A stretch of 64,000 nt of DNA from a virus. This document shows, piece by piece, positions 26,404 to 59,855 of the stretch; position 1 is the first letter of the stretch, and every line of letters begins with the position of its first letter. The position numbers and the translations under genes were made by a program. The notes below the pieces were generated by a model. That model did not search any database and was not told where the DNA came from. It worked only from the letters and a program-made list of their open reading frames with translations. The stretch spans positions 49,165-113,164 of the IMG/VR virus record IMGVR_UViG_3300043436_001870. One strand, written 5' to 3'.

Positions 26404-26429
26404 AAAGTTTAATAAACTTTTAAAGTTTA
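26404..26429. promoter_or_regulatory. Triple alternating 8-bp repeat (operator/promoter-like)
   Basis: AAAGTTTA-a-TAAACTTT-t-AAAGTTTA forms two overlapping perfect inverted repeats in the only sizeable gap of the cargo block. Confidence 0.5.
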
Positions 26430-29210
26430 CATATAGCCTACCTTGTAAACATAAGGTACAACTGGTCCACCTTTTCTTGATTGTGGTTGACCCATTGCAT
26501 AGTTTCCATAAGGCATTGATGCTGGAGCAATTGAACTATATGCTTGGAAGTATGCATCTTGCTCACTAGGAGCTCTAGTAGCCCCAGCACTTGCAGGTTT
26601 ACCATAGAAAATATCCGTAGCTTGTTCATGTGTAAGCTCTGGATGTTTGTCCTTCCAAGACATGTACTGATCAGCAACTGATGATGGAGCTGACTCCCGA
26701 CCTGTAAATTTCCGACCCTTATTAAAGTACATCATACCTCCAGTGGCAGGATCAATTTGATAATTAGGATACAACTGATTCAACACCTGAGCTTGTGCTC
26801 TATTAGTAACAGCATCAATATAAGATTGTCTTAAGTTACCTTTAGCAGCTCTACGAGCATTATCATAGTTCTGGTTAGTAAGATTAACCTGATCCACATA
26901 TGTCTGAGCAGCCTGTAAGTTCTGAAGCTGAGCTTGGTTCATGATATCTGCTTTCTTGTAAGCAAACTCATTAGCTACCCCTACGTTCTGAGTATTATAT
27001 CTACCCATAACATTTGCAATCTGTTCTGCAGCCGTTCCCTGTATCCCTGCAAGACGTGCACTGGTCATAGAAGTAGATGCTCCAGATCCTCTCATAACAT
27101 CACCGGCAATACCAGCAGTTTCTTGGATAGCAGCAATCTCTCTAGAAGGATCATAGTAAGTCGGCTCAGGTACATAAGGATTGTACTGATACTTAGCTGG
27201 CATGTATTTTCTAATACTAGCTAGGTCAGAAACAGCACCCATAGTTCTTACCACATCCTGAAGCCACCATGGAGTATAAGTATCACCTGATATGTAATTA
27301 GGATCTTCCTGATCTAATATCTCGGTTTCTTCAACTTCCTCTTTAATTTCCTCAGTAGGTCTTTCATATGTAAATGCATCAGCATGCTCAAGACCTAATT
27401 TTGCATCATCACCTTGTCCTGGTCTGTACTCGTCAGGAAGAAAGTAATGTTCTATAGCACTTGTCAATCCAGCCTCTGTTGCAATTACTTCACCAGTCTC
27501 TTTATCCTTAAAAACTCTGTTAGGATTAAGCTTAGCTTTTTTCTTACCACCAATAAATTCTGGTGTATATAATTTCTCAGGCTTATCAATGTTGCTTTTA
27601 ATGTACTGATCTTCTAGGTCATAACCTAATGCGGTAAACATTGTCTTCCTGTTAGCTAACTTTTCATTAGCAGGAAGTTTATCCCAATCTGCAGCAGTAC
27701 CTTCCATGTTATTAGCTTTCCAGAAACGGTACTCATAGAAGTCCGGATCTGTATAGCCATAGAAACCTGTGCCTCCAGATTCTTGTAGGGATACGTTGAA
27801 TTCTGGTGTGCCAGCTCCAATCTGATTAGAGTCCTTACCATATGAGAAGAAGTCAGTTAAGAATTCTTTCTCATCTATGTTCATAGCCTTCTTAGCTGAT
27901 GATTTAATTTCCCAGCCTGGATTTCTCTGAACATTACCTACCATGTAGGGATCAGTGTGGTATATAGCATGACCGTCCTTGGCCAATCTGTTAAGAATCT
28001 CAGCAGCCTTTTGTTTGTCTGTATCAAAGTTACCAGTATAATACTGAGAACCTGACTTAGTCATGTTTACAGGTTTAGTAGGATCATAAGGTAATACCTT
28101 ATAGTATTTACCACCTTCCTCATATATATCACCGGCTTTAGTAGCCTTTGCTTTATCTTTAATTTTAGATCGATCTACTGAAGTTACAGTTTTAGTCTTT
28201 ACTCTGTATCTTTTACCATTTCTTTCAATGATTCTCTCACCATCTGATTTAGTTGGAGTATTATTCTTACCATAGTACGCATCATCAAACTGAGTAATTC
28301 TTACACCATAACCGTCTACATAGTACGGATTGCCTTTTTCATCTGTTTTATAAAACACACCAGAAGAATAATCAGGCTTAACTTCAGGTTCCTTCTCAGT
28401 TTGAACAAGACCAGTAAGAACTTGAGCATAGAAGTTATTCATATACTCTCTTCTCATTTCTCTCTGAGTTCTACGTGTCTCACGTTTTCTCTGTCTCTCA
28501 GTTGGTAAGAATGATAACTGTCTTTGTTGTTCTTCAGTCATCTGACCACCAGGCTGGAAAGATCTTAGTGGCATACCACCATATCTTGCCATAGGCATCT
28601 CCTGCATTTCCATACCTTGACCAGGTTGACCTGGTTCAGTAGGTAGCAACATATTAGGATCAATGTTGTACTTTGCAAGGAAAGGCATTGCTACTAATGG
28701 AATACCTCCAGGAAATCCTTTCATGGACTCCTGAATCAAAGCAAGCTTACCAAGTTTTACCTGATAGTTTGCAATAACAGCCTCTGCAGTTTGAACCTGC
28801 AGTTTATCAGAATCAGGATCCTGAAGAATCTTACGGTACTTATTAATATCATACCTCTTAGATATTTCTGCAGGAGTATATCCTCTCTTTGACTTAGGCA
28901 TACCAAACTCAGCAATAAGATCAGCATCCTTAATTCTCATTGATGCTGTATCACTGAATACAAATGAATCAGGAGGAATAACCATTGGTACTCCACCCTG
29001 ATGGTGTCTTGGGCCATGAATCTTATAGTGAGCTGGTAAACCTTCCTTGTCTGGAAGAAACACAGTTTCACCTCCTTCTGTTTCTACATTGGCCAGATCT
29101 CTGTCAACTGGACCCAAAGATGTTCTAACCTCCATCGGCTTTTGTGCCAATGAGTTTGGAATATAACTGGGGGCCATCTGATATGCCCTTACAAGTTTGT
29201 TATTATACAT
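26427..29210 (-). CDS. Virion cargo protein (927 aa)
   Basis: N-terminal ETEGGE...GPRHHQGGV motif seen in crAss-like internal proteins; Q/N/A-rich helical C-terminal region; MARYGG, FQPGG and RKGG motifs. Confidence 0.7.
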   Translation of the reverse strand: MYNNKLVRAYQMAPSYIPNSLAQKPMEVRTSLGPVDRDLANVETEGGETVFLPDKEGLPAHYKIHGPRHHQGGVPMVIPPDSFVFSDTASMRIKDADLIAEFGMPKSKRGYTPAEISKRYDINKYRKILQDPDSDKLQVQTAEAVIANYQVKLGKLALIQESMKGFPGGIPLVAMPFLAKYNIDPNMLLPTEPGQPGQGMEMQEMPMARYGGMPLRSFQPGGQMTEEQQRQLSFLPTERQRKRETRRTQREMRREYMNNFYAQVLTGLVQTEKEPEVKPDYSSGVFYKTDEKGNPYYVDGYGVRITQFDDAYYGKNNTPTKSDGERIIERNGKRYRVKTKTVTSVDRSKIKDKAKATKAGDIYEEGGKYYKVLPYDPTKPVNMTKSGSQYYTGNFDTDKQKAAEILNRLAKDGHAIYHTDPYMVGNVQRNPGWEIKSSAKKAMNIDEKEFLTDFFSYGKDSNQIGAGTPEFNVSLQESGGTGFYGYTDPDFYEYRFWKANNMEGTAADWDKLPANEKLANRKTMFTALGYDLEDQYIKSNIDKPEKLYTPEFIGGKKKAKLNPNRVFKDKETGEVIATEAGLTSAIEHYFLPDEYRPGQGDDAKLGLEHADAFTYERPTEEIKEEVEETEILDQEDPNYISGDTYTPWWLQDVVRTMGAVSDLASIRKYMPAKYQYNPYVPEPTYYDPSREIAAIQETAGIAGDVMRGSGASTSMTSARLAGIQGTAAEQIANVMGRYNTQNVGVANEFAYKKADIMNQAQLQNLQAAQTYVDQVNLTNQNYDNARRAAKGNLRQSYIDAVTNRAQAQVLNQLYPNYQIDPATGGMMYFNKGRKFTGRESAPSSVADQYMSWKDKHPELTHEQATDIFYGKPASAGATRAPSEQDAYFQAYSSIAPASMPYGNYAMGQPQSRKGGPVVPYVYKVGYM

Positions 29211-29222
29211 AGTGTAAAGGTA

Positions 29223-31757
29223 TTATTTACCGAACTTATATGCTCCGGCTTTCTTAACATTTTTAATTGTAGGCATAGTCATGTAGTATGTATCAGCATA
29301 ATAAAAAGGTTGTCCACCGTACTGTGCATACATACCTCTAACATTTGCAGTTGCTTGACGAGGTCTAAAACCAAGACCAATACCTGGTTGATTCATAAAG
29401 TAAGATCCTTCACTATTACGAGCATTAGATTTACCATGAACCTGAAGAGCTGAATTAAAATCTGCATCTTCCTGATTCCAGCTACCGTACTTATTAAAGA
29501 AACCGGCAAGAGTATCCATACCAGCAATCATTTGATCAGCACTTAAATCAGCAAAAAGACCTTTTCTCTTTATCTTGTTATCTTTAATAATCTGGTCCTC
29601 TGCTCTAAAAGGATCAGCTTCTTTCTCAATCTCTCTAGCTTGTTGATCCATAAAGTCATTTACACCGGTATCCCAATACATATTTTGTGTATTGTTAGCC
29701 TCAGCATTTACAGCTACAGCTCCATCAAATGGAGGCATCTCAGCAGAAAAAATATTGCTCTTCTCACCAGAAAAATCAGTGCTCTGAAACATTGGTAATG
29801 CATATGGACCACCATGTCTCATACCTTCCATAATACCTTTTAACATAGCCTCTCTATGTTGAGGATTATTTTTATCAAAAGTTGTGGATCCTCCAGTGTT
29901 TACTTCTGTGCCTACGTAAGGACTTGGTCCAAGAACTGGTCCTTTTACATTTGATCCAATAGGATTAATTGTTACCATAGGTTCAGTTTGATTAAATGAA
30001 GAATAATCAAAATCTGTATTACCAGCAGACATCATTGATGGTTGCTTAACAGGACCCTCTGGACCAATTACAGGACCGGCTGGTGCATATGATGGTTGAT
30101 TAGGTCTATAGTTCCAATTATATGCCATTTGAACCTTTTGATCAGTAGTCATTGCAGGCATAGCACTTTGGAATGTATTAGGATCTTGAATAGCAGGAAC
30201 CTGAGTTGTTTTTGCAGACTCAGTTGGCATTGTTGTCCTATAAGGACCCTGACCAACACCTTGCTTTACAAGATCAAAACTCTTGATTCTATTACCAGGT
30301 AAAAGAGCTGCTCGTGTTTTTATATTAGTGGGTACGTAACCTCTAAGGTCAACACCTGATAAAGCATAACCAAGAAGTGCATTAGCACTCTTTCTTCTAA
30401 GTCCTCCTCCAGGTATGTAATCTAAGAAATTACCATAGTTGGCTTGTTGCTGTGGTTGTCTATAACCTTGTGGGTACTGATAATACTGTGGTCCAGATTG
30501 ATATGGTGTATCAAAGTACATACGACCAGAACTATCTACAGGTACACGTCTACCACTACCATCATTTAATTCTACCATTCGCCATCCTTCCCAACCTGTT
30601 GGTGTAGTACCAGTAGTACTAGTGGTTGTTGTAGCAGAATTAGTAGGACCAGTTGCTGCAGGTGCACTTGATGAACCACTTGTTCCTGTTGTACCAGCAG
30701 CTGTAGTACCAGATTCTTGTTTCTTCTTCTCAGCATCAACCTCAGCTTTTAATTCTTCTGCAGTTCTTGCTTTAGTAGCAGTTGCTGTAGAAACACCACC
30801 TGATGTAGTACTGTTTGACTTAGGTTGAGCAGCCGGAGCCGATGCAGCTGGTTTACTGCCAGATCCTGCTGCAGGAGCAGAAGATCCAGAAGATGGTGTA
30901 CCAAGTAGTCCTAATGCATCAACGTTGTAATCAACAACATTAGTATTGTAGTTAGGATTATTAGGATCTAACATCATAGACCCTGGTGCTAGACCTGTAA
31001 CATCATACTGTCCAGATGTATCTTTAGATTGATACTTAGGTATACCACCATATCTCATTCCAGACATTGGAGGAGCCTCATCTACAAGCTCAATAGACTT
31101 CATTAGTGCCTTCTGTCCATTGTTCTGGATCTTACCAATAAAGTTCTGCATCTTATCTGTATAGAAACTGTCTTTACCAGTTCCTGTTGGCTGGCCTCCA
31201 GCTTGTAAAGAAGGTTGGCCACCGGCCATCATTGGATATGGTGTACCATAGTAATGGTTCATATCCTCCTGAGTTCTTGAATCAATACCAGCTAATTCAG
31301 ATCCTGATTGCATTACAGGAAGCATGCCTGTAAACTGAGGCATACCAGGAGGAAAGTTACCACCAGACTGAAGCATAAAGTAATTAGTCTTACCCCATCC
31401 TTTGTTTGGAAAACTTACTGCCTGAGGAAATGCCTCTTGATATGATCCACCAACCTCATATGCATTATTACTATTAGTATAAACAGGAGCAAAGAACTGT
31501 TGCTCTGATTGAATCTGAGGATAGATATTAGGTAGACCAGTAGCACCACCATCTCTATGATAAGTAGGAGGCACGGGTACACCATAACTAAAGAACTGAT
31601 CAGCAGTTGCTATCTGAGGAAAGGCCTCAGGAGTTCCACCCATTGCTAATTTCTTGGCCTCTGGAAAGTCTCTGAAGAAGTTTTCCTCACCATATGCTTC
31701 TAATTCCTGAGGAGATTTAAAACCTCCCATCTTCATGAACTGCTTTATAAGATTCAT
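29223..31757 (-). CDS. Low-complexity virion cargo protein (844 aa) with about 10 hydrophobic-x-x-GG motifs
   Basis: MKMGG, LAMGG, HRDGG, YEVGG, LQSGG, MMAGG, LQAGG, MRYGG, MRHGG, AQYGG; S/T/A/P-rich disordered centre; repeated (F/Y)PQ peptide. Confidence 0.65.
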   Translation of the reverse strand: MNLIKQFMKMGGFKSPQELEAYGEENFFRDFPEAKKLAMGGTPEAFPQIATADQFFSYGVPVPPTYHRDGGATGLPNIYPQIQSEQQFFAPVYTNSNNAYEVGGSYQEAFPQAVSFPNKGWGKTNYFMLQSGGNFPPGMPQFTGMLPVMQSGSELAGIDSRTQEDMNHYYGTPYPMMAGGQPSLQAGGQPTGTGKDSFYTDKMQNFIGKIQNNGQKALMKSIELVDEAPPMSGMRYGGIPKYQSKDTSGQYDVTGLAPGSMMLDPNNPNYNTNVVDYNVDALGLLGTPSSGSSAPAAGSGSKPAASAPAAQPKSNSTTSGGVSTATATKARTAEELKAEVDAEKKKQESGTTAAGTTGTSGSSSAPAATGPTNSATTTTSTTGTTPTGWEGWRMVELNDGSGRRVPVDSSGRMYFDTPYQSGPQYYQYPQGYRQPQQQANYGNFLDYIPGGGLRRKSANALLGYALSGVDLRGYVPTNIKTRAALLPGNRIKSFDLVKQGVGQGPYRTTMPTESAKTTQVPAIQDPNTFQSAMPAMTTDQKVQMAYNWNYRPNQPSYAPAGPVIGPEGPVKQPSMMSAGNTDFDYSSFNQTEPMVTINPIGSNVKGPVLGPSPYVGTEVNTGGSTTFDKNNPQHREAMLKGIMEGMRHGGPYALPMFQSTDFSGEKSNIFSAEMPPFDGAVAVNAEANNTQNMYWDTGVNDFMDQQAREIEKEADPFRAEDQIIKDNKIKRKGLFADLSADQMIAGMDTLAGFFNKYGSWNQEDADFNSALQVHGKSNARNSEGSYFMNQPGIGLGFRPRQATANVRGMYAQYGGQPFYYADTYYMTMPTIKNVKKAGAYKFGK

Positions 31758-31758
31758 A

Positions 31759-34700
31759 TCACTTGTATTTATTAAGCCACGAGCTTGTATTAGACAAAGT
31801 TACACTATTAATATACTTATTTTTACTGAGAGATCCACCTTTTTCAAATTCCTGTTTTTGATTATTTTGTAAAACAGGTTGAGGAACCTGCAATGGTTGT
31901 GGTGCTCTTGGTTGTATATATGGAAAAGGTAATGCCTTTAGTTGATTATGATAATCTGCATATTGTGATTCCAATTCTGGTAATTTTCCTTGATAACTAT
32001 AATAATTCATTGTTTTTGGATTCATCCAATTTGCTAGTTCCTCTTCATCTTTAGGTATTTCAAAAGTCCAATCCTTTCCGGAACCGGAATCATAAAAAAA
32101 ACCTTTTTGTGTATCTGTAGCATTTCTTCTTATTCTAGAATCAACATTAGAAACATTGCCTGATGATACCATTGTATGCCAATACCCTGGTCTTTCAATC
32201 ATTGCTACATCACCAGCTTCTAAATTTTCATACTTTGTAGGATACCAACCTTTATCAGGAGTAAGTTCATCTTTTAGTTTTCTACCTGATGAAATTTGTT
32301 TTACAGGATATCCTGATTTTCTTAATGCTTCTGTAGCTCTTGTTGCACAATATTGTTGACCATTTGGTAAAACAGTACAAAAAGGAACATTATCCATAAA
32401 ATGAGATTCTCCACTATCTAATAGATTTTGTTTAAATCTTTGTATATCCGCATACTCAGTTTCATAATTTTTTCTTATGTTATTCATTTCACTTTGAATA
32501 TCATAATATTCTGGGTTACTTCCTCCCTTTTGATACTTGTTTATCCATCCACCATCTTTTTGTTGTGGAGTATCTTGTCCTGCTATAACAGCTGCAGCTC
32601 CTGTACCTATTGCTGCTGGTACTAATGCTTTATAGATATTAGGATTAGTCATATCAAACATTCCATTGTTGCCTATTGCTGATTTAATATTTTTTGGGTC
32701 AAAAACTATAGTTTGTCTATGGTATGGAAAAATGTTTTTATCAAGAATACCATCATAGTTATTTTTTAATAACTCATTAAGTTGTTCATTTGTTATTTGG
32801 TCGTTTCCATAAGTACCTTTTACTCTACCTGAATATGGTTTTTCCATATTAATGTATGTTTGGTATATTTCTCTTTCATTTTTAGGTGTATTTCTTGAAT
32901 AACTTTCAGCCCTTGACTTACTGGGCGTAAAATAAATACCTTGGTCTCCAGTATATGTATCTCTTTTAATATACCCTTTATCTTGGGGTGTTAAAAATTG
33001 TTCATACCCTACTTTACCTCCATGATATTGAAAAGCAAAACTACCATCTGAATTTACTAATTTAGAATTACCAAATGCCTTTTTAAAGTTTTCACTATTC
33101 TGTTGCACAAATTGTTCAGGCGTTCCTTTAAAAGGAGAACCATCAGGATTTTTCATCCAACTACCATCAGCTTTAGTTGTTTGTTCTATAGCATGATACT
33201 CATCCATTAAAGCTTTATTAGATGGTATTTCAGAATTCCATTTGCCCCAATCTATTTCTGATTTAAATTTATTAGCAGAACCTGGTAGTTGAGTAGGTGT
33301 AAAAAGTTTTTGTTGGTCTAAAGGAATTACAAACTCTCTATCAGCAGCTCTACTTAAAGATTTATCATAATTTTGAAACTCTGCTAACCTACTCTTAGGT
33401 ACTTGTAGTTGTATAATCTCTGGGTCAACAAATTCTCTATCAGCTTTGTAAAAATCAAAATCTGCTTTATCTTTTGTAAACCATTGTCCAAAATATTTTT
33501 CTCTATCTTTAAAATGTTGTATAGCTTTTTCATTTTGAAACATTGGTCCTAATTTACCTTCAGCAGCTAATTCAGACATGGGTCTAGCTCCTCTTTCTTG
33601 TATTCTCCATAAATCAACTAAATCATCAACATTACCAGAATCTGGTAATTGTTTGGTCTTGCTCCCTTTAGACCCTTTTAAAAATGGAATAGGTAATGAT
33701 CCAGCTAACTCTAAAGCTCCTTCTGCAAGATTTCCAGAAGCAATATTAGAAAGTCCATAGAATGCTCCAGCTCCTGTAGGAAAGATAATGTTATTGAATG
33801 TTTTATTAGCATCTTCTCTTCTATCCATAATTGCTTGCTGAACCTCTGCTTCACCACCTGGTAATATTCTTTCTCCAGTTTGAGGATTTTCATAAACGGT
33901 CTGCATAGAACCTAAAGCTCCGGGAACTTGTCTTGCAACAAAACCCTTAGGAGTTTTTTTGGTATATGCAGTCATTATCCTATGATTTAGAGCTGCATCT
34001 TCCTCTACAGGATTACCTTTTGGTTTAGGTGTGGCTACAGAAGTTTTATCTGCAACAGCTTGTTGATTGCCTACATATCTAATATCACTAGTATCAACAG
34101 GCTGCTTCATAAACTTGGCAAGCTCTGGATTAACTTGATTACCGTCTTGATACTTCTGTAACCAACCACCATACTTATACCCTGCTTTAATAAGATGTTT
34201 TTGCACATCTCCTTTTGTTAAGTCACTAACAAAACTAATAGTCTCCATAAGATTCTTTGCAGTATCAAAATTCATATTTTGACTAAGCATACTAAGTGTA
34301 TTATACTCAGCATTTTTATCTATCTGTCCTAGTATTCCATCTCTAATAAGTTTTTTTAATGTTTCTTCTTGCACGGTAGGATTTATATTTCCAATATTTT
34401 TAACCCAATGATTACTCATTTTAGGGGTTACTGCTGGTGATAGATCAATAAACTTAAAAGAATTAGAAGCATCATCATAAAAAACATTACTGCCAGCATT
34501 ATCAATTGCTGATCTATTTTGTGCTAACTCAAAATAGTCTTTTGCATATTGAGTCCAGGCATCTGTTGGAATATTAATTATCTTATCTGTTGGTAAAGAA
34601 TATAAAGGTTTACCCTCCATTCTACGCATTATATATGCATTTAATATGTCAGGTTTTGTTATAATCTCAGCACTTTTTGGAGAACCTGGTATGCCATTAT

Positions 34701-37700
34701 CCTTTACTGTATCAGCCAAAGCAGAGATATTCTCGTTCGGCACTTCTGGAATATATTTTTGATTATTAGATAAAATTCTTTGTTGGTTAACTACTTTACC
34801 AACATTAGGACTCTTAATATTTTTTTGCATTTGACTTAGGTCAATGTCCATAAACTCAGGAATATATTGAGAAACTTGCTCAGGACTTTCATATTTAAGC
34901 AAGTAACCTGGATAATCAGGTAATTCATATACTCCTTTGTTAAAAGCACCGTCAGTAGCAATGTTTGGACCTGTCCGAACAGCAGTTACATCAATGTTTT
35001 TTGGAGACTGGTAAACTCTTTTGTATCCAGTTAGCCAGTTTGGTTTAGCTTCATAAATTGCATTAATATCTTCAAGATCTAGCTGCTGTAAAACTTCTCC
35101 TGTTTCAGGATCAATAGGTCTAGCTGCTGCATGACGCCCTACAATTTTTTGACCTGTTACAGGATTTATTTCTCCTCGGGAATACATAGGTACATCAGAC
35201 TGCATTAAATAATGAGGTGTTGAATCAGTGCTTTTAAAAACCTCTGCTGGTTTTCCTTTTGAAAAAGATGGAAACTCTGTAGGTCTACGAAATACCGAAT
35301 TATCTCCAATAGGATTAGCCCTTACTAAAAATGTTTTGAGTGCATCATCATATCCAGCTTGATTCACATATCTATAATTCATGTTTCCTTCTAATGGTGT
35401 AAAGACACTTCCTTTAGCAGTAGGATTTATTTTATATGTATATTGTAAAGGTGTCTGAGTAGTAAGATATTTACCTGCTCTTGCTGCATTCTCAGCTATA
35501 TTAGTTCCTTCTAATAATCCTATACCAACAGCATTGAGTGGATCATACCCTGCTTCATAAAGATTACTCATTGCAGCTGCATATTCTGGTTGTCTATAAT
35601 CTGTAAACAATGGCTTAGATCTCTGACCTTGTAGGGCAGAACCAAAATCTCCAGTAATAGCACCTGTCACAAGATTAGTAGGATAAGATAACGGTGCCAA
35701 CATTCCCATAGCAGATGCATTGGCGGCTTCCTCTTGAGTATAATCTGAATTAGTCCATAATGGTTGATTAATAAGATTGTTACCTTGATACCAATCAATA
35801 GGTCCAACGGCAGCTATGTTTGCAGCATTTCTTAAATTCTTCTCAAGACCTTGGCTAAACTGACTAGTAAAATCTGGATCTAGTTTACCAGCATATTGTG
35901 ATCTTTCAATAGTAGATCTTTCTTCCGGGGTGAGAGAGTTTAACCACTCTACTCTAGTTCTGTCTCCCTGAGGTTTATTACCTAAAATCTCTAGAGCTAC
36001 TTGATCATTGGCATTCTGTGATGCTCTTTTTTGAACACGGGGATCTAATGGATTCATACCTAATGACTTAGCAAAAGGTGTCATCTCACCCTCTCTTGTC
36101 TTAGCCGCTATCTTCTGCTTCTTTTTATCTAAGTCAGTAAGATTATACTGATACTCAACAGGCTTAGTCATAACAGTCATAGGTCCAAATTCTGGATCAT
36201 ATGTCTGATATGAATCTTTAAATAAGAAGTTCCATTTGGGATCATTAGGATCTACCTCAGTTTTTCTACCATCAGCTTTTCTTACAGCTTTTTGAAGCCA
36301 TCTTTGCTTTTCTTCAGTAGTAAGAGATCTTCCTTTTTTACGTTCTTTCTCTGCAAGTAAGTCTGTCCACTGCTCTACACCTTTATTGTATTCATCCCAA
36401 CCTTTAGCATAATCAGCAGACTGTTGTGCCTGTGGATCTAGAGATGGAAGAGTAAAATTACTTGTTGGTTTAACTTGACTAGAACCTTCATTACCTTGAT
36501 ATTTATTTAACCAGCCACCATACTGCATGGTCTGTTTATCATATAGATCTACAGCCTCATGATACTGGAACTTACCATCACCCTTAGAAGCATTAGCTCG
36601 TCTGTAATTGATATAGTTATCATACCCACCTTGTTCAATTAATTGAGCAGCTACTTTACCAATAGATTGATTGTATGATATTCCTGCTAATTTAGCAAGC
36701 TGGTCTGATGTCATATCTAGACCATACTCATTGGCTACTTCTTTTAGGTAAAGGTAGTTTTTACTAAGTACATAGAATGTTGGTAAGCCTGCCTTTACAG
36801 GATCCGTAAGTTCATAATCAGACTCATATAACTTACTTCTTAATTGAGGATTGATGTTAGTCTCATCTTTTAGGGATGTGATGCCCATTGATTTTTCTCT
36901 CTCAGGCATAAGGGCATCCTGTAATCCTTTTGCTACAGCACCTGCTACTATACCTGATGGTCCTGGTAGTACATTTGATATAATAGATTTTTCATAATTC
37001 TTTCCTGCATATGTTTCTCTAGTAGGAATAATCCGAGCAACTCTCATAAGTTTTCCAAACTCATTTTCTGTAATAGGAATATCCTTAAGAATTGAATCTT
37101 TATTCTTCTCAATTACTGAAAGAAACTTATGAGTATTTTCTCCTGAAATTGATTGACCAGCCCAATCTGCTTGATTTGCTAAAGCACCTTCAGGTTTAAA
37201 TTGGCCATATTCTGTTTGGTAATAGGATATACCTCCTGCTGGTATCCTTCCATCATTGTCTACACCATCAAAATAGTTAGGTCTTGTGATACCTGCAATT
37301 AATGATACCTGACTCTTACTATTACCTGGTACCTTACCTTCAATAAAATCTTCAACTGGTTGTTTTTGAAGATCTCCATGGACATTATGCTCAACATATA
37401 ATTTACCATCCTTGTCAGCTTTTACAATACCAACGTGTGTAGTAAAGAATCTATTATTTAAAGGCTGAGTTTGATTCCATGCTTTCTTTGTAGAAGGAGA
37501 ACCTTCATAAAATATATTAACAACATCACCAGGTTTAATGTTACCTGTATTCAACATTTCTCTTAGCTGTCCTTTTACAGCATCATTATTCAATGTTGAT
37601 TTAAGATAGTTTTTTATTTCATTCTCACCAGCCTTAGGTGACAATGGAATCTGTGATCTTTCAGGTAAACCTGTAAATAAAAGTTTACCTCCTTTATTTT

Positions 37701-50538: not shown

Positions 50539-53500
50539 TATTTACAATTTTTAGTAATACAACATTCACAATCAGGGAATACATTATCCACAACAATATC
50601 ATAGATTAAATCACTGCAGCTTTCGGTTTTAATTAAGGATGCACAAAATGGTTGACAACTATTATATTCAATTGTTCCACTAAGACTAGTCTGTTTACCT
50701 GGTGGAAAAATGCTTGTATTTTTTGTTACTCCATTATCAGTGCTATAGTAAGCTGTAGCACTTCTACCAACCATTGCTGCTTTTTGTTGATATGAAAATA
50801 TACTTGATGTACTTGCTGTTGTTCCTGTTATTGTTGATTGAAGAGTCCAGGTTGCCCCACTATTAGTTGTTCTATATATTCCACCGACTTCTCCAGAAGA
50901 TGCCGGATAATAAACAACATCTGCAATATTTGTACTACTTAATGAATTACCGCTACCTATAACATTTTCAGTAATGGTAAGAGTTTGTGTAAATGTAGCA
51001 CCAAAATCTGCTGATTGATATATGCCGGTTCTTGTAATAGCAATAATAACATTAAGACCTAGTGTTACAATATCTTGTACAGGATTACCAGCAGATATTG
51101 GGTTATCACTATTACAAGCAGTCCAAGTAAGACCTAAGTCTATTGACTTAAATATCTTATCTTCAACACTAACATAGATAGTTGTTAGATCCCAAGAAGC
51201 AATAGCATAGGCTTCTGGAGAAGGTCCCCATGTAGGATATAATGTTGCAGGAGAATCTGGTAAATCAGAAAAAGTAGTTCCTCCATCTGTTGAAACAGCA
51301 AAAGTGTCTCCAACAGCTATAATTAAATCTGTGGGTAGAATTTCATTGTACAAAAGAATATCATTAAATTCTCCTCCTGTGGTATAAGAACCTCCTACAG
51401 CAGTCCATGAAAATCCATGATCTGTAGTATGATATATTCCTATAGTTCCAGCTGCAAAAACAGAACCTATTATCTGTCTATCAGCTTTTATAACAGATGC
51501 TGTTGATGTTGACACAGGTAATCCATCAAAATATAAATCATAGGTAGCACCAAAATCTGTAGATACATACACAGCCTGGAAACCACCTGATACTAGACTT
51601 CCATCCTGAAGAGCATATATATATATTATTTCCTGTAGCACAGGTAACCAGTAAGATGTATATGGGCAAGAACTATTAATAGGAGAATAAAACAACATAG
51701 TAGATGTTGTTACATTATAAAACTCCCATTGTGCTGGATCATTATTCCATACAATTGAATAATCATTTCCACTTGCCGTAAACAAATATTGGTATCTACC
51801 ATTTATTAAAACACTAGAGGCAGTTACATCAATTGTTTCTTCAGTACCAGCTTCAATATCAAAAATACCTGTTACACGTAAACATTTGCAGGTTGGTTCA
51901 GTAACTGTAAAGCAAAGACCAGGATAACCCTGGATACTGATAGTCTTCCCTATAAGATTTAAGAGATCTGAATCAGTAAGTATAAAACTCTGGTCATTGA
52001 AACAGTTGTTCAACTGATACAATGGAGGATTACAAATAGCACATGATTGGAACTCTGAAGCTATTGTAACTGCTTCTGGAGTAAACTCAGTTTTAGTATT
52101 TGGTCCCACCTGCCAGCATTCACCAGGATATTCTGATACCTGAACAGTCTTTGCAAGATCTGCCTCTAAGTCTTGAGTAGTATAAATAACCACATCAGTG
52201 TCCTTACAATTGTACAGAGCATATGATGGATCACATAAATAACATTCATCAAAAGATTCAGTTACAGTAATTACTGTGCTTATAGGGCATATGTCGTCAA
52301 GCTTGGTAACTGTCCAACAAACATCTGAACCTTGAATCTTAACAACCTTTCCAATATACTCTGAAAGGTCTACCTGAGTAATAATGTCCTGAGCTGAGCC
52401 TTTACAATCAGCTAATTCATAACAACATGGTACAACAGTTAATGATTCTAAACAATTACATCTTGCAATTAAACGTGTAGGATCATCTGGATCAGTAGCA
52501 TATGTTAATGTACAGCCAGGAGGACATGCTGGTGGTGCATAAGCACCTCCACATACAGAATCTGATACAGCACCGGCAATTGCTGATGCTCCTGAAAAAC
52601 TAGCTTCAAACCAAAGAGGTGTACCATTCTCAACTGTAACAACAGGTGTTGCTATATTTATGAATGTACTGTAAATACTAGACACTTCAGTAGATTCGCC
52701 CAAACCTACCATGATATGTTTTATACCATCTGTTTTTAATACATCACATAAGTTAATATAACCTGAAAGTGAACTATATGATACAGCACTATATATACAT
52801 GGACCAGAACAACCTGTTCCATCAGTTATTGTAATAATAACCTTGGCAGCAAGAGGTCTTGCAGTAGCACCAGAAAATAATTCATTCTGTGCTGCACAAA
52901 TAGCATCAACATGGTCAGTTCCTCCTCCTATGCTAGATGAACATAAACCTGAAGAAGGATTAGTTTTAGGCTGATTTATACCTGTTGTAATATCAGCAAT
53001 ATTTGTAGTAAGTTCTTGTGACACACATGCAGAAGTAGCCCACTGAACAATCCCAACCTGAATATCTCCAGAGGTAATTTGTGCTGATAAACTGTTTACT
53101 ATATCCTCAGCAAGAAGCTTCATTTGAGTCCACTCAGGATAAGCAGTACTATTTTGTACAGAAGATGAGTTATCTATTGTAATAATTAAATCTACCTCAC
53201 AAGATCCTCCTAAAAGAGATTCACAATTTCCTGTTACAGGATTATATGTAAAACCTTCACCACATAATGACAAACCTTCAATCTCTTGCTCACAGTTACC
53301 TGTTACTGGATTAAAGTCATATTTACTTCTACATTCTCCACATAGAAAATCAACACCAGTAATTGCAGTTATTTTAGCTGCAACAAAAGGATTAGTTAAT
53401 GTTACACCACCATCTGTTGATGCATATAATGTTGTATTATTACCAACAATAATGCTATTGAGGGTAAAGTCAAAAATATCTACATTATCCGTTCCAGTTG

Positions 53501-54278
53501 AGGCACCATTAACTAATGCCCATGTACTACCAGAGTTTGTAGATTTATAAATACCTAGATCACATATAAGATATACAACACCAGTACTTACAGTTGAACT
53601 ACTAAATCTAAAATCTGCAGTTGTTGAACCACCAAGTGCTCCTGGTGTTCCAAGTAGAGTAAATGTATTACCTGAGTCTGTTGACTGATAAACACCAGCT
53701 CCACATACAACAGATATTGTTCCACCTAATCCATCAGAGACAATACCTGTTATTTTGTAACCAGCAACAATAGGAACATCATTATTAAGAACTTCCCATG
53801 TATTACCAAAGTCTGTTGTTTTGTATACCTTATCTTCAATTGCAACAAAACCACTAGTTCCAGCAGGAAAGTATGCAGCTCTTGCAATAGAACCAGGTAC
53901 ACCATATAATGTAGAAGCTGTTACTGGTAATGCAATAAAGTTTTGACCACCATCAATTGATTTGAATAGTTGATCTCCAATAGCAAGAACATTAAAACTA
54001 TCAATGTAGTAAACAGAATGCCACTGATGGCCTGTAGTATTACCAGTAAGTGTATAAGACTCACCACCATCTACTGATCTGTATATACCGTGCACTTGGT
54101 TAGTAACAAGACTCTTGTAAGGATCATGAGTATCTGTAGCTATCCATACACTTGTAGCTCCTATGGTAAAGGGGCTTGTAGGAAGACCGGCAGCTGTTGC
54201 CAGACTCCAGTTTACACCAAGATCATCTGATACATAGACCTTATTAAACCCTGCTATCGCATATGTTCTTGTTGCCAT
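50538..54278 (-). CDS. Putative receptor-binding/fibre protein (1246 aa): two BNR/Asp-box beta-propellers, VWA domain, Cys-rich repeats
   Basis: Multiple S/T-x-D/N-x-G-x-T/S-W/F boxes at both ends; DLIITIDNSSSV (MIDAS DxSxS) with IITITDG; tandem NPVTGNCE; three Cys modules at about 51890-52430. Confidence 0.8.
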   Translation of the reverse strand: MATRTYAIAGFNKVYVSDDLGVNWSLATAAGLPTSPFTIGATSVWIATDTHDPYKSLVTNQVHGIYRSVDGGESYTLTGNTTGHQWHSVYYIDSFNVLAIGDQLFKSIDGGQNFIALPVTASTLYGVPGSIARAAYFPAGTSGFVAIEDKVYKTTDFGNTWEVLNNDVPIVAGYKITGIVSDGLGGTISVVCGAGVYQSTDSGNTFTLLGTPGALGGSTTADFRFSSSTVSTGVVYLICDLGIYKSTNSGSTWALVNGASTGTDNVDIFDFTLNSIIVGNNTTLYASTDGGVTLTNPFVAAKITAITGVDFLCGECRSKYDFNPVTGNCEQEIEGLSLCGEGFTYNPVTGNCESLLGGSCEVDLIITIDNSSSVQNSTAYPEWTQMKLLAEDIVNSLSAQITSGDIQVGIVQWATSACVSQELTTNIADITTGINQPKTNPSSGLCSSSIGGGTDHVDAICAAQNELFSGATARPLAAKVIITITDGTGCSGPCIYSAVSYSSLSGYINLCDVLKTDGIKHIMVGLGESTEVSSIYSTFINIATPVVTVENGTPLWFEASFSGASAIAGAVSDSVCGGAYAPPACPPGCTLTYATDPDDPTRLIARCNCLESLTVVPCCYELADCKGSAQDIITQVDLSEYIGKVVKIQGSDVCWTVTKLDDICPISTVITVTESFDECYLCDPSYALYNCKDTDVVIYTTQDLEADLAKTVQVSEYPGECWQVGPNTKTEFTPEAVTIASEFQSCAICNPPLYQLNNCFNDQSFILTDSDLLNLIGKTISIQGYPGLCFTVTEPTCKCLRVTGIFDIEAGTEETIDVTASSVLINGRYQYLFTASGNDYSIVWNNDPAQWEFYNVTTSTMLFYSPINSSCPYTSYWLPVLQEIIYIYALQDGSLVSGGFQAVYVSTDFGATYDLYFDGLPVSTSTASVIKADRQIIGSVFAAGTIGIYHTTDHGFSWTAVGGSYTTGGEFNDILLYNEILPTDLIIAVGDTFAVSTDGGTTFSDLPDSPATLYPTWGPSPEAYAIASWDLTTIYVSVEDKIFKSIDLGLTWTACNSDNPISAGNPVQDIVTLGLNVIIAITRTGIYQSADFGATFTQTLTITENVIGSGNSLSSTNIADVVYYPASSGEVGGIYRTTNSGATWTLQSTITGTTASTSSIFSYQQKAAMVGRSATAYYSTDNGVTKNTSIFPPGKQTSLSGTIEYNSCQPFCASLIKTESCSDLIYDIVVDNVFPDCECCITKNCK

Positions 54279-55095: not shown

Positions 55096-56415
55096 TTAGT
55101 CATTTGATGGCTCAACTGGAGTGCACTCCTCATAGCAACCAAAGGTCTGAAGACCATTGCAAGATGAGTTTGCATTAGCCAACCAAGCTGCCATGAATGC
55201 TTCAAAAGCTGCATCTGTACCATTTGTAACAATCTGTAACAAGTACTGATCATTATCAAATGTTCCTGTTGGGTTATTCAAACGTGGTACACTGTGCTGA
55301 ATAAAGTAGTTTGTATACTGTGAGTTCTTATCAATTGCATTGAATACATCAGTACCATTGGTAATCTCACGGATACGAAGATCCATTCCAGTATAGAAAG
55401 GTTGTTGTGCATATCCTTCAGTAAGGATTAAGCTACGAAGAGCACTTTCTCCAAATCCTGTTCCTTGAACTGGAAGACATTGGTTATATACACACAAACC
55501 AGAGAATTGGCATGGATCACCATTTAAGTCTACCTCAGAAGCATAGATCTTTACTGGCTCAATGTAAGCAATGATAGAATCATTTGGATAGAATGTACAA
55601 GTTCCAAAACGAGTATCTACATATGCACCATTGATGATCAAACCAGCAAGAGTTGTTGCATCACCAGGAAGAGTTGATGGATCTAATGTGTAACCTAACA
55701 ACAAGTTAAGGTTAGTAGTAGATGATGTTCCATCACCAATATTTATCCAAGTTGTACCACCATCAGTTGAATAAGTGATTTGAACTTGAATGAATGGATT
55801 GATCAAAGGACTGTTCAACAAATTGTAAGCCCATTGAGTGTAAACAACCAAAGGATTAACTGCTGAAGGTGCCAAAGCATCTGCAGCACAGCAACCTGTA
55901 TAAGCAGCTGCATCATAGTATGTGTTACGGCTCAAAGTACGAAGTACTGGAGAACCTTTAATATCTACACGTAGGTAGTAAGTCTCATCACACAAGAACT
56001 CTTTTGTACAAGTTGGTTGATCCCAAAGGTCTACAGCAGGATCAGATCCTGGCACTTGTCCATTAGCTGCACCAACAGTAACCTGAGCTTGTTGTGGAGA
56101 ACATGGATCCACACGATAGAAATTAGTAATATACTTAGGATTGATAATCTTTGACTTTACAGTCTCAGAATATCCACCATGGAATGGACCAATTTTATCA
56201 TTTGGGTGAATTGAGCTTGATACAAGCATCAATGGGCATGCAACAATTGTTGCTGGAACCAAATCAGGAACTTCCCAAGTGTTGGGATTTACAAAGGTAA
56301 ATCTAAAGTTTGTACCAATGTCGTCATTAATACCGGCCAAGTATGGACCGGGAGTTGTATAGAAGCCAGTCGTACCAACGAAGGCCTTCTGAAAAGCATG
56401 GTTAAAATAAGCCAT
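55096..56415 (-). CDS. Abundant structural protein (439 aa), probable auxiliary capsid protein
   Basis: Codon usage resembles the MCP gene; has its own leader and terminator; beta-rich sequence. Confidence 0.55.
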   Translation of the reverse strand: MAYFNHAFQKAFVGTTGFYTTPGPYLAGINDDIGTNFRFTFVNPNTWEVPDLVPATIVACPLMLVSSSIHPNDKIGPFHGGYSETVKSKIINPKYITNFYRVDPCSPQQAQVTVGAANGQVPGSDPAVDLWDQPTCTKEFLCDETYYLRVDIKGSPVLRTLSRNTYYDAAAYTGCCAADALAPSAVNPLVVYTQWAYNLLNSPLINPFIQVQITYSTDGGTTWINIGDGTSSTTNLNLLLGYTLDPSTLPGDATTLAGLIINGAYVDTRFGTCTFYPNDSIIAYIEPVKIYASEVDLNGDPCQFSGLCVYNQCLPVQGTGFGESALRSLILTEGYAQQPFYTGMDLRIREITNGTDVFNAIDKNSQYTNYFIQHSVPRLNNPTGTFDNDQYLLQIVTNGTDAAFEAFMAAWLANANSSCNGLQTFGCYEECTPVEPSND

Positions 56416-56483: not shown

Positions 56484-56490
56484 AAATGTT

Positions 56491-57096: not shown

Positions 57097-57100
57097 TATT

Positions 57101-57999: not shown

Positions 58000-58016
58000 A
58001 GTATTACTAATTTATA

Positions 58017-58109
58017 TTAACACTTCCATTTTCTCAATGACTTATTAATCCTGCTATTAGGATCATTAGCAGTCTTACTAGAAGTAAGTTTCTTCTTCAT
58101 GCCAGACAT
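58017..58109 (-). pseudogene. Orphan 3' end (30 codons) of the gene at 58776-59021
   Basis: [30 protein letters not shown] is 22/30 identical to the last 30 aa of the 81-aa protein. Confidence 0.8.
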
Positions 58110-58372
58110 CATTTTTTCTTACCTCTTACAACACCACCATTTTTTTTGTATTTAGAAGCATTTTGCTCTGCTTTTTTTACAGCATCGTAGTAAACTTTAC
58201 CTGGATTATCTTTATACAACTGTTTAGCAATCTGTAACTTTTCTGCAGCATCTTTTTTGGCTTGTGCATATGGGTTGTATTTAGGCACATTTATTTTTAC
58301 TGCTGTTTTATCTGCAGCGGCAGGTTCAACCTGAATTCCTTTTTGTGCCTTTTTTAAAACTTTCTTTTTCAT
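58109..58372 (-). CDS. Small basic protein (87 aa)
   Basis: K-rich; LKKAQKG at the N-terminus and YKKNGG at the C-terminus; ATGA overlap with the endonuclease gene. Confidence 0.75.
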
Positions 58373-58868
58373 AGTAAATCTAACTTTAGATAATCTTCTG
58401 CCTCTCTTGTGTTATCAGTATAAGATAACAAATATATTCTAGCAAACTCTAAAAGTTCTGGATCATCTTTAAAATGTCCCAACCCTCTATTACAATGGTT
58501 ACAAAGCATCCCCCTGACCACATTGGTTTTATGACAATGATCAACTACCAGATTTTCCTTTGCTCCACATATTACGCACTCAGTTACAGTTTCAATAATA
58601 TCTTTTAAAAGTTCATCAGATATCATTTCTCTATATTGTCCTCTTCTGGTTTCACTTCTATAATTAGACCTACAGGATTTACACCAACTATCAAAACCAG
58701 ATTTAGTTTTATTATGCAAAGGGAAGTACTCAGCAGATAAAGGTTTATCTACTTTACATCTTGTACATTCCTTTGTTAGCACTTCCATTTTCTTAAAGCC
58801 TTATTTATTCTACTATTTGGGTCTCTTGCTGTTTCTGCAGAAGTATTTTTAGCTTTGTGACCTTTCAT
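58110..58868 (-). mobile_element. Putative free-standing homing-endonuclease cassette carrying a replacement 3' end of its target gene
   Basis: EndoVII-type nuclease plus an 87-aa gene lie between two diverged copies of the same 93-bp gene end. Confidence 0.55.
58369..58788 (-). CDS. Endonuclease VII-like (His-Me finger) nuclease
   Basis: CVICG...[27 protein letters not shown] plus N-terminal CxxC...CxxC zinc motif. Confidence 0.9.
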
Positions 58869-59021
58869 TCTAGCACAGAATGATTTTTTTCTAGGACCAC
58901 CTTCAGGTTGTGGAGGTTTAATGTCATGACCAGCTGCCTTTAGAGAAGCACGACCTTTAGCATTAAGTCCACCTGATGGTGACTTACCTTCTTTTCTTTG
59001 CCAAGCTGGAGACTTTGCCAT
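58776..59021 (-). CDS. Small basic conserved phage protein (DUF6321-like, from memory)
   Basis: PAWQRKEGK...[10 protein letters not shown]...RKKSFCARM...[15 protein letters not shown]. Confidence 0.8.
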
Positions 59022-59022
59022 A

Positions 59023-59292: not shown

Positions 59293-59477
59293 TATTTATA
59301 CCCTCCACCTTTAGACTTGTACTCTCTTGCAAGCATCTGAGCCTTTCTAGCAGACCATTCTCCAGGATCTCCACCCTTAGAGCCAGCTTTAATCTTGTTA
59401 AATAAAGACTTTCTCATACTAGGTTTAGTATAATTACCAGCCTCATTTACTTTGGATTTACTTTTTTTTACAGCCAC
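59292..59477 (-). CDS. Small basic protein, N-terminal half of a DUF5872-like protein
   Basis: YTKP.MRK.LF..IKAGSKGGDPGEWSARKAQMLAREYK.KGGGY; GTG start; TAATG coupling to the next gene. Confidence 0.75.
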   Translation of the reverse strand: MAVKKSKSKVNEAGNYTKPSMRKSLFNKIKAGSKGGDPGEWSARKAQMLAREYKSKGGGYK

Positions 59478-59598
59478 AGTCTTTCATTTTAGTTGGGTAA
59501 ATGGATTGAATACTCCCTCCGTTTTTAGCAGAAGGAGTACTCTTACCATATGAAATCATGTTCTTCTTTTCATCAGAAGAAAGAATTGGACGGTTCAT
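59458..59598 (-). CDS. Small basic protein (46 aa)
   Basis: MNRPILSSDEKKNMISYGKSTPSAKNGGSIQSIYPTKMKDCGCKKK*. Starts 2 nt after the previous stop and carries an AKNGG motif. Not in the ORF track. Confidence 0.65.
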   Translation of the reverse strand: MNRPILSSDEKKNMISYGKSTPSAKNGGSIQSIYPTKMKDCGCKKK

Positions 59599-59600
59599 GG

Positions 59601-59855
59601 TTATTTCTTCTTACCCATTTTCTTCATTGTACCACCTCTCTTCATCTTGCCACCATACAGTCTTGATGGTTGTCCACCAGGAACTACATTAGCACTAGGA
59701 TTCATATTAGGAGTTACTCCTTTTGTACTAGGAGTAGTTTCAACAGATACTGAAGCATTTGCATTCTTCATGCCACCAGTCATCATTTTTTTAGCACCAC
59801 CTGCCATCATTTTCTTAGTACCACTATAGCTCATTTTTTTACTAGCCTTTTTCAT
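59601..59855 (-). CDS. Small Lys/Met/Gly-rich protein (84 aa)
   Basis: Repeats KKMSYSG, KKMMAGG, KKMMTGG, RLYGG, MKRGG. Confidence 0.8.
   Translation of the reverse strand: MKKASKKMSYSGTKKMMAGGAKKMMTGGMKNANASVSVETTPSTKGVTPNMNPSANVVPGGQPSRLYGGKMKRGGTMKKMGKKK

Follow-up and report, generated by a model that had tools for sequence, protein, structure and literature searches.

The window analysed here, that is, the whole stretch of 64,000 nucleotides at positions 49,165 to 113,164 of the IMG/VR record IMGVR_UViG_3300043436_001870, corresponds to the right-hand 64 kb of a 113,164-bp contig of a crAss-like phage. Among its late genes, all of them on the minus strand, three consecutive ones encode cargo proteins of 2473, 844 and 927 amino acids (aa), which carry short peptides built around pairs of glycines. 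An earlier note on this DNA had described a hydrophobic-x-x-GG (h-x-x-GG) tag common to cargo and small basic proteins, and had proposed for it a genome-wide sorting or cleavage code that marks proteins for the capsid interior. The pattern is real, but it loosely describes two sharper motifs: in the 2473-aa protein GG-W-[LI]-x-K-Y-Q-x-GG, placed at the module junctions and the C-terminus, and in the 844-aa and 927-aa proteins GG-x(2-8)-aromatic-P/K-Q. The finding is therefore more specific than first described, as it concerns the three first cargo proteins and possibly one small protein. How large proteins are chosen, arranged and pushed from phage heads before the DNA is poorly understood, and in crassviruses what has been seen so far is limited to fragments of a single cargo protein; in this regard, a conserved peptide at the ends and module junctions of the first-ejected proteins offers a concrete experimental handle.

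The three cargo genes and their Gly-Gly motifs

In the direction of transcription, the late genes run from a scaffold-like open reading frame (ORF), cut by the contig end, through the major capsid protein (MCP), small proteins, tail and fibre proteins and three structural proteins of 194 to 301 aa, to a series of large proteins of 1727, 2473, 844, 927, 1083, 1702, 3880 and 1906 aa. The 1727-aa protein matches the 2289-aa virion protein family phrog_37948, whose profile length is that of gp042 of Cellulophaga phage phi4:1; gp042 occupies in phi4:1 the position that the 1727-aa gene has here, and we regard the latter as a tail-tip, muzzle-like gene. The 3880-aa giant, a putative virion RNA polymerase (vRNAP), holds a RecD/PIF1-type helicase. 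The features on which the argument leans are the following, with AlphaFold2 confidence given as the predicted local distance difference test (pLDDT).

31759-39180, minus strand: 2473-aa polyvalent cargo ("slot") protein, with a conserved N-terminal domain of ~95 aa and four modules
38896-38928, minus strand: junction motif 1, KGWLSKYQEGG (residues 85-95), which closes the conserved N-terminal domain
36487-36528, minus strand: junction motif 2, MQYGGWLNKYQGNE (residues 885-898)
34138-34179, minus strand: junction motif 3, YKYGGWLQKYQDGN (residues 1668-1681)
32521-32553, minus strand: junction motif 4, GGWINKYQKGG (residues 2210-2220)
31762-31785, minus strand: C-terminal tail SSWLNKYK, followed by the stop codon
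29223-31757, minus strand: 844-aa cargo protein, mostly predicted disordered (mean AlphaFold2 pLDDT 40)
31638-31757, minus strand: N-terminal helical domain of the 844-aa protein (residues 1-40, including MKMGG; pLDDT 74-87)
31188-31649, minus strand: array of four ~30-aa units h-x-x-GG-x(2-6)-[FYM]-P-Q, then MMAGG and LQAGG
31029-31058, minus strand: MRYGGIPKYQ (residues 234-243), in many homologues [RK]-[YWHF]-GG-x-P-x-[YF]-Q
29784-29822, minus strand: MRHGGPYALPMFQ (residues 646-658), in most homologues xRxGGPYxLPMYQ within an otherwise unalignable region
29313-29327, minus strand: AQYGG (residues 811-815), where G814 and G815 are invariant columns
26427-29210, minus strand: 927-aa cargo protein, whose N-terminal domain (~residues 40-125) weakly resembles the portal-bound crAss_CARG1 domain
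28545-28589, minus strand: ARYGGMPLRSFQPGG (residues 208-222), a GG - x5 - FQ - x - GG unit
26430-26480, minus strand: C-terminal SRKGGPVVPYVYKVGYM (residues 911-927), a GG-containing tail
61479-63101, minus strand: MCP, 540 aa, phrog_11589

Every pentapeptide listed in the earlier note is found in the translations, at the following residues.

844-aa protein: MKMGG 8, LAMGG 37, YEVGG 100, LQSGG 129, MMAGG 176, LQAGG 184, MRYGG 234, MRHGG 646, AQYGG 811
927-aa protein: ARYGG 208, FQPGG 218, SRKGG 911
2473-aa protein: AQSGG 71, YQEGG 91, MQYGG 885, YKYGG 1668, YQKGG 2216, FEKGG 2445
Small proteins: MMAGG, MMTGG and MKRGG in the 84-aa protein, KKNGG in the 87-aa protein, AKNGG in a 46-aa ORF (59458-59598)

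The K-Y/F-Q element that had been noticed after the glycines is also present, although it does not stand by itself and forms one unit, Y/F-Q-x-G-G, with the next h-x-x-GG. The core unit can then be written as aromatic or Met, Q (or R/K), any residue and G-G, and its full form as G-G-W-[LI]-x-K-Y-[QKN]-x-G-G.

A motif frequency matching the Gly content had been named as the observation that would speak against the tag. Counted alone, the GG dipeptides do match the prediction from Gly content in every protein (14 against 10.9 expected in the 844-aa protein, 13 against 14.7 in the 2473-aa protein), but their sequence context is not random. In 500 composition-preserving shuffles per protein, the pattern [MLFYA][QRKEM]xGG was expected 0.7 times in the 844-aa protein, where it occurs 8 times, with corresponding values of 0.95 and 7 for the 2473-aa protein, 0.4 and 3 for the 927-aa protein and 0.15 and 3 for the 84-aa protein; no further protein of the window gets to p<0.1. 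Across the 126 predicted proteins of the whole 113-kb genome, where the residue class has a background frequency of 0.40, position -3 of GG is hydrophobic in 24 of 36 cases in the three cargo proteins against 38 of 118 elsewhere (Fisher p=4e-4). Moreover, PHI-Q-x-G-G occurs nine times in the 4,244 aa of these three proteins and a single time in the 31,255 aa of all the others, and W[LI]xKY occurs five times in the 2473-aa protein against 0.01 expected. The patterns were chosen after the data were seen, which makes these p-values optimistic; the same post hoc patterns were confirmed in independent loci and in 150 family representatives.

An origin of h-x-x-GG by chance in low complexity rich in Gly, Gln, Tyr and Met would agree with the GG counts, with the composition of the 844-aa protein (11% Gly, and rich in Q, Y, P and M) and with the late definition of the patterns. 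As a general account it is very improbable, and for the three large proteins it is refuted by the shuffles, which fail to reproduce the counts, by the positional conservation of the sites in homologues, and by the presence of the exact 8-residue motif in 44 viral contigs against ~2 estimated by chance; for the 84-aa protein a compositional artefact is possible. The concentration of the pattern in specific proteins holds as first described, for a subset of virion or ejected proteins only. A genome-wide code for cargo does not, since the 3880-aa (putative vRNAP), 1906-aa, 1702-aa and 1083-aa proteins lack the pattern.

The four modules of the 2473-aa protein comprise, in order, PG_binding_1 with a Cys/His hydrolase-like segment, a module with no assigned domain, ART-PolyVal, and a second Cys/His hydrolase-like segment. 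Pfam places ART-PolyVal at residues 2045-2175 (E 1e-10) and PG_binding_1 at residues 296-360 (under the curated cut-off), and weak leads to NlpC/P60/CHAP at residues 430-650 and 2222-2420 suggest that the two Cys/His segments, one of them beside PG_binding_1, may be wall hydrolases of this type. Searches of PDB-chain sequences with the 2473-aa and 927-aa proteins and with the profile of the 844-aa family gave nothing relevant. The W-L-x-K-Y copies follow the N-terminal domain, separate three pairs of modules and form the last residues of the protein. What is expected of a polyvalent protein is found here: at least two unrelated domains in one chain (ART-PolyVal and PG_binding_1, the NlpC/P60/CHAP-like segments being leads) and a late, virion gene context, with the slot gene flanked by the muzzle-like 1727-aa gene on one side and by the cargo and vRNAP genes on the other. 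In phi4:1 the slot analogue is gp040, which according to its record annotation was found in virions by tandem mass spectrometry (MS/MS).

In three syntenic loci (L003-L005) the slot is occupied by a protein of 477-562 aa that keeps the N-terminal domain, with PNWLDKYQ or PNWLDKAQ at the position of junction motif 1, internal GGWLD[KT]YQ copies and the end WL(D/N)(K/N)Y(K). Fusion of tandem genes was considered as the source of the internal copies and set aside for want of direct support, as no locus with two separate genes bearing terminal motifs was found. A single base separates the stop codon of the slot gene from the next ATG (TGA-T-ATG, window 31757-31761), which puts the downstream gene in the +1 frame. 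The same gap is present in 20 of the 27 related loci listed, and the slot gene and the next cargo gene are probably translationally coupled. In 26 of these 27 loci, the gene after the slot starts with a helical domain of ~35 aa of the 844-aa type, with the consensus MKxQILKIAGVKSEKEFYKKFPTEEAF.

The 844-aa protein itself is likely the counterpart of the crassvirus cargo protein 1. Its first 40 residues, which fold into four short helices, are its only confidently folded part, a few other short elements reaching 70, and this domain is conserved in 26 of the 26 sequences of alignment A3. The array beyond it (residues 41-199, with the units LAMGG..FPQ, HRDGG..YPQ, YEVGG..FPQ and LQSGG..MPQ) has a pLDDT of ~33, and the GG columns fall in regions of ~30-35, in predictions that rest on shallow alignments of 22 and 9 rows. 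The location of copies in disordered linkers and near termini, proposed at the outset, is supported by these models. Among 50 metagenomic homologues of this protein, an alignment of 22 (25-73% identity), in which the middle of the chain is barely alignable, has only 21 invariant columns, and G70, G71, P80, Q81, G104, P111, G132, G133, G814 and G815 are among them. Three homologues (P0018, P0042 and P0047) contain inserted modules of ~150 aa bounded by extra GG motifs, and the N- and C-terminal ends of the 844-aa protein are common to the slot-downstream protein of distant relatives. A complex prediction with the first 60 residues of the 844-aa protein and the last 60 of the 2473-aa protein scored 0.13 against a mark of 0.32, and with controls not run it speaks neither for nor against binding.

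As for the 927-aa protein, its N-terminus aligns by hhalign with gp45 of crAss001, in the part that comes after the GGWLNTQGG peptide, over 35 columns at 43% identity, a weak match with a probability of 25%. Its internal unit ARYGGMPLRSFQPGG is kept as ARYGGGMQMFQVGG in L004 and ARYGGSMSTYQVGG in L005, and its C-terminal SRKGGPVVPYVYKVGYM as NGGPVPFTYTVGY and KGGLVPFAYTVGY, respectively. The slot-downstream proteins of more distant loci (L009-L058, ~1000-1170 aa) combine an 844-type N-terminus with a 927-type block (LPDGGETIMFRG-SHDNGGMPITFG-VEVEGGEPAVKL), so the 844-aa and 927-aa proteins may be a split of one ancestral cargo protein. These combined proteins also show Gly-rich, membrane-like runs resembling residues 112-172 of crAss001 gp45.

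Distribution of the W-L-x-K-Y peptide

The nearest isolates by MCP are Leptolyngbya phage Lbo-JY46 (28%), the Cellulophaga phages phi4:1 and phi17:2 and one crAss-like phage, and in searches against isolated phages these four are also the only matches of the MCP and the slot N-terminal domain together; megablast found no DNA match among isolated phages, and tblastn with the 844-aa protein found nothing. A much closer relative, G001, has an MCP that is 97% identical. Terminase and portal are absent from the contig described here, and G001 has them between the same flanking genes (a 738-aa TerL and a 915-aa portal). Upstream of the MCP, the scaffold-like ORF is interrupted by the contig break (window 63133-63999, and contig start, L001 41-1364). 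The contig of G001 ends at almost the same point, which may reflect a physical genome end or a repeat.

Identity to G001 falls from 97% in the MCP to 82% in the 301-aa protein, 62% in the 1727-aa protein, 61% in the 927-aa protein and 46% in the 1083-aa protein, and in the 844-aa protein it is only 38%, and only over the first ~245 residues; the slot protein has 2473 aa here against 562 aa in G001. Compared with this relative, the head is nearly frozen and the cargo region changes fast. In this arms-race region, the motif marks the sites where effector modules (ADP-ribosyltransferase, wall hydrolases and others) are exchanged.

A degenerate DNA pattern for GGWL[DN]KYQ had 44 matches in IMG/VR, ~41 of them in long ORFs, against a chance expectation of ~2 that was estimated from the information content of the pattern (~36 bits) and an assumed collection size. 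Bacterial genomes (596 Gb) scanned with the same pattern gave 14 matches, about the chance level; 12 of these fall in short frames as chance matches, and the two that look real come from contigs binned with metagenome-assembled genomes of Bacteroidota, the only hints of a host. The peptide is phage-specific, and it is spelled in 28 different ways at the DNA level among 45 copies, which places the constraint on the peptide and points to selection at the protein level.

A profile built from nine short members retrieved 4,222 clusters (50% identity) at E<=1e-3, of which 1,129 at E<=1e-30. In the best 150 of these 4,222 clusters, with lengths from 244 to 2080 aa, 144 proteins end in WLxKY plus zero to four residues, most often exactly one (WLDKYQ 42, WLNKYK 27, WLDKYN 24, and others), 73 have the peptide within their first 15 residues and 114 have internal copies. 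A conserved terminal peptide across cargo of variable module content, as expected of terminal cargo-targeting peptides, is what these 144 of 150 proteins show; the vRNAP and its fellow giants do not share this feature. The logo reads K-K-[ND]-G-G-W-L-D-K-Y-[QEN]-x-G-G, and in the wider family position -5 is usually Lys and not hydrophobic. The slot holds proteins of 258 to 2080 aa, the smallest of which (258-334 aa) have the motifs and no enzyme modules. The PHI-Q-x-GG form reaches further, to the MS/MS-detected gp040 of phi4:1 (FQAGG, YQNGG, FQIGG, FQSGG) and to the analogue in cyanophage Lbo-JY46 (FQTGG, FQQGG).

No Pfam model covers the W-L-x-K-Y family, whose only match, a weak one, is to phrog_36695 ("virion structural protein"), and a full-text literature search returned no occurrence of WLDKY, WLNKY or GGWLDKYQ. 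In the paper on polyvalent proteins (PMC5512222) the words "linker" and "glycine" are never used, so no such junction motif is reported there. The peptide belongs to a large family for which the searched literature gave no functional annotation or description.

These data bear on another account of the motif, a tolerated flexible hinge and splice junction, flanked by Gly and with no specific binding partner, which would persist because modules are swapped by recombination between its copies and because beads-on-a-string chains pass a narrow tail channel. Module content does vary greatly while the motif positions stay constant, and the cargo region is hypervariable next to a conserved head, as the comparison with G001 illustrates. 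The N4 vRNAP, in turn, is described in the abstract of a study as beads on a string that pass through a channel of ~35 A (Bellis et al. 2026, PMC13434306). If it were a mere linker, however, W-L-x-K-Y would not stay invariant in over 4,000 clusters, nor would it need to form the last residues of a protein, and the free variation of synonymous sites leaves only short and imperfect DNA homology for recombination. We consider a junction of this kind, with no other role, to be unlikely.

Docking, cutting and ejection of the cargo

A structural precedent is gp45 of crAss001 (cargo protein 1, 842 aa), of which only short pieces are resolved: residues 425-552 form a domain bound to the portal wing, residues 214-245 a helix bound to tail rings R1/R2, and a 14-residue piece probably lies on the muzzle. 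Its authors argue for a single, uncut chain that runs between capsid and tail (Bayfield et al. 2023, PMC10172136). The gene layout of crAss001 (rings, muzzle gp44, cargo gp45 and gp46, then the RNA polymerase (RNAP) giants) parallels that of the phage described here, where the 844-aa gene, like gp45, lies after the muzzle and before the RNAP giants and encodes a Gly-rich, largely unmodelled or disordered protein of about the same size (844 against 842 aa, ~90 kDa). BLASTP of the 184- to 314-aa proteins against one another gave no sign of a paralogy comparable to the tail rings R1-R4 of crAss001. The composition of gp45 includes 12.6% Gly and 20 GG, and the Pfam model crAss_CARG1 (PF25725), for which gp45 scores 222 bits, starts at its residue 424 with N-A-F-G-G-W-L-N-T-Q-G-G. 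With phmmer, gp45 matched L048_next, a member of the wider 844-aa group, over ~80 aa ending in the GGWL-like peptide (E 2.8e-6 in a set of 65 sequences).

PF25725 itself has no match in the 927-, 844- and 2473-aa proteins, in the six frames of the genome (E<=10) or in the relatives G001-G004, and reaches 12 bits in G005; profile and sequence searches of PDB chains likewise did not find gp45. What can be claimed is therefore resemblance and probable distant kinship to gp45, not membership. There are also differences: crAss001 has no separate slot protein, and its gp45 has no C-terminal W-L-x-K-Y tail and no GG..FPQ array. A membrane helix is predicted in gp45.

Conserved peptides within disorder, flanked by Gly and often terminal, have the look of docking motifs, and together with the crAss001 precedent this leads us to favour, tentatively, a role as docking or junction peptides of a largely unfolded cargo, as in crAss001 cargo protein 1, and not as cutting sites. 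The specificity, conservation, predicted disorder, terminal position, distribution and synteny of the motif are shown by the data; that it binds something, what this partner would be and that the chains stay uncut is inferred. The glycine pairs on both sides would hold out an aromatic peptide of 5-7 residues, and a conserved virion component or a neighbouring cargo chain, with the portal and the lumen of the tail barrel or muzzle as candidates, would grip it, which would hold the cargo chains in place and in the right order for leaving by the tail. With the same peptide at both ends of the slot protein, new effector modules could be spliced in at a copy with the ends undisturbed, and such splicing would give the beads-on-a-string 2473-aa protein; docking and a hinge or splice junction are not mutually exclusive. 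The sorting half of the earlier proposal is plausible in so far as a virion component may recognise the tag, but "capsid interior" is too narrow, as the crAss001 cargo docks on portal and tail barrel (PMC10172136).

Several points weigh against docking. The motif patterns were defined post hoc, and the shallow alignments (22 and 9 rows) make the disorder predictions soft. The genome and its relatives match none of the curated cargo models of crassviruses, and the link to crAss001 consists of synteny, one partial phmmer match through an intermediate, the weak hhalign match (25%) and resemblance by eye. Moreover, an invariant Gly-Gly is also required by GG-specific cysteine proteases, and a motif set between enzymatic modules resembles a polyprotein arrangement.

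Cleavage of such a polyprotein, by a phage or host protease cutting after GG or Y/F-Q in the head or after ejection, would release the wall-hydrolase and ADP-ribosyltransferase modules, among others, and shorten the 844-aa and 927-aa proteins. An aromatic-Q pair is the typical site of 3C/TEV-like proteases, and GG that of adenain, Ulp1, PLpro and C39. Known GG sites of this class are the adenovirus (M/L/I)XGG-X, the coronavirus PLpro LXGG and the C39 double-glycine leaders (hydrophobic at -4, -7 and -12), and the motifs described here share with them a hydrophobic residue before Gly-Gly and repetition in several virion proteins, including one small basic one. The invariance of the GG columns, the position of the motif exactly between 2473-aa modules with different destinations, and the many natural C-termini that end right after K-Y-Q, where a cut after Q would end, all agree with cutting. 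In this line, polyvalent proteins have been argued to be processed by their own peptidase domains, with release by a built-in zincin metallopeptidase (Iyer et al. 2017, PMC5512222), and the 2473-aa protein shares with them ART-PolyVal, wall-binding and hydrolase-like modules and a late virion gene.

A scan for the zincin signature HExxH, however, found none in the 2473-, 844- and 927-aa proteins, and the 2473-aa protein has instead a fixed junction peptide; among polyvalent proteins such a peptidase is common but not required. The only proteins of this genome with HExxH are those of 1906 and 3880 aa and an early one of 400 aa. The 1906-aa (window 645-6365, residue 174) and 3880-aa (window 6366-18008, residue 711) proteins carry FHEFAHP and YHEAWHG, respectively, possible zincin-like peptidase domains such as those proposed for N4-like vRNAP polyvalent proteins, and their presence in these neighbours is a further point in favour of cutting. 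Zincin and papain-like domains of the cargo had been put forward as protease candidates; the two Cys/His segments of the 2473-aa protein look like NlpC/P60/CHAP wall hydrolases beside a peptidoglycan-binding domain (weak leads). Nor do the complete relatives have a recognisable head protease between portal and MCP: in G001 and G004 the head module has TerL, portal, a phrog_16294 protein (no assigned function, fold not examined) and MCP, with no protease family match in PHROGs. Sites for head-maturation proteases of the T4 gp21 or phiKZ gp175 type would be expected in head proteins, and the motif is missing from the MCP, the scaffold-like ORF and the proteins of 177 and 338 aa.

The sites themselves also differ from those of adenain, PLpro and C39, with the hydrophobic residue at P5 and not P4 (P4 is mostly Q, R or K), copies that are internal or C-terminal and not leaders, a C-terminal continuation into W-L-x-K-Y-Q, and no such protease found here. 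At the extreme C-terminus (144 of 150) or the N-terminus (73 of 150), cutting frees nothing; the minimal members of 258-334 aa have all the motifs and no modules to release, and the model of crAss001 has a single gp45 chain that extends through both tail and capsid. Cleavage is thus the weaker half of the earlier proposal, and we hold it to be distinctly unlikely.

Short terminal peptides that load cargo are known from the encapsulin cargo-loading peptides and the T4 capsid-targeting sequence, which stand on a flexible linker and bind an HK97-fold shell or a scaffold core, the T4 sequence being removed by gp21. The slot peptide resembles them as a short conserved terminal peptide on a flexible linker, common to otherwise unrelated cargo modules, and differs in that it is also internal and is absent from the vRNAP. 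The ejection proteins of N4 are comparable as giant multi-domain proteins with loose connections that face a narrow tail channel; the abstract of their study names no shared junction peptide (PMC13434306), and here the vRNAP has no motif.

A different possibility places the partner outside the virion, with the motif acting after ejection as an epitope for the host envelope (the membrane interface, peptidoglycan or a periplasmic protein) that would help the first-ejected proteins to build a trans-envelope conduit. Colicin translocation domains offer a parallel, as they are disordered and carry TolB and OmpF boxes. The carriers are indeed the proteins expected to leave first, and they include wall-hydrolase modules, besides a transglycosylase-like domain in Lbo-JY46 and Phage_lysozyme2 in phi4:1 gp041; the peptide combines aromatic and basic residues and is presented within disordered, Gly-rich sequence, and the only host hints are to Bacteroidota. 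Against this stand the absence of a predicted membrane segment in the motif and the occurrence of the PHI-Q-x-GG form in a cyanophage as well, which makes a host-lineage-specific receptor unlikely for that form. We deem a role in the host envelope quite improbable.

Docking inside the virion can be taken one step further. It is possible, although doubtful, that G-G-W-L-x-K-Y-[QKN] is a universal, plug-and-play cargo tag of a very large uncultured crAss-related group (>4,000 protein clusters), where the free C-terminal and internal copies would be gripped by a conserved receptor, sited either in the lumen of portal or tail or on the next cargo chain, and any module spliced between two copies would load and eject in a set order. 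If true, this would explain how anti-host effectors are swapped freely while the head stays 97% identical, and, if the peptide were sufficient for loading, it would become a tool for packaging foreign proteins into such phages.

Small late proteins and other neighbours

The small basic proteins do not carry the tag as a class, as had been proposed, and only one of them is enriched:

59601-59855, minus strand: 84-aa Lys/Met/Gly-rich protein with MMAGG, MMTGG, LYGG and MKRGG

Four of its five GG have a hydrophobic residue at -3, and its homologue in G001 keeps the three C-terminal GG (SYGG, MKMGG, MGYGG) and has lost the two N-terminal ones; whether it belongs to the motif system is uncertain. 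The 87-, 81-, 63- and 46-aa ORFs have one or two GG each, mostly with no hydrophobic residue at -3, the 89- and 139-aa ones have none, and no motif copy is present in the MCP, the scaffold-like ORF or the 177- and 338-aa proteins. The start of the 87-aa basic protein (58109-58372) resembles the KKAQxG element that follows the N-terminal helical domain in distant relatives of the 844 type.

The same group of small late genes (window 58369-59021) includes one for endonuclease VII (139 aa, PF02945) and one for an 81-aa, free-standing DUF6321 protein. In PHROGs, DUF6321 aligns with the C-terminal ends of phage proteins that are much larger (e.g., positions 849-928 of a 928-position profile); a link of the 81-aa protein to the cargo modules or gp45 was dropped, as no significant similarity to them was found. 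Finally, the 1246-aa protein (50538-54278) contains seven S-x-D-x-G-x-[TN]-[WFL] repeats of the Asp-box, BNR-like type, and the 439-aa protein (55096-56415) contains one. These repeats, a different motif, account for many of the GG in both proteins and suggest beta-propeller receptor-binding or sialidase-like tail proteins.

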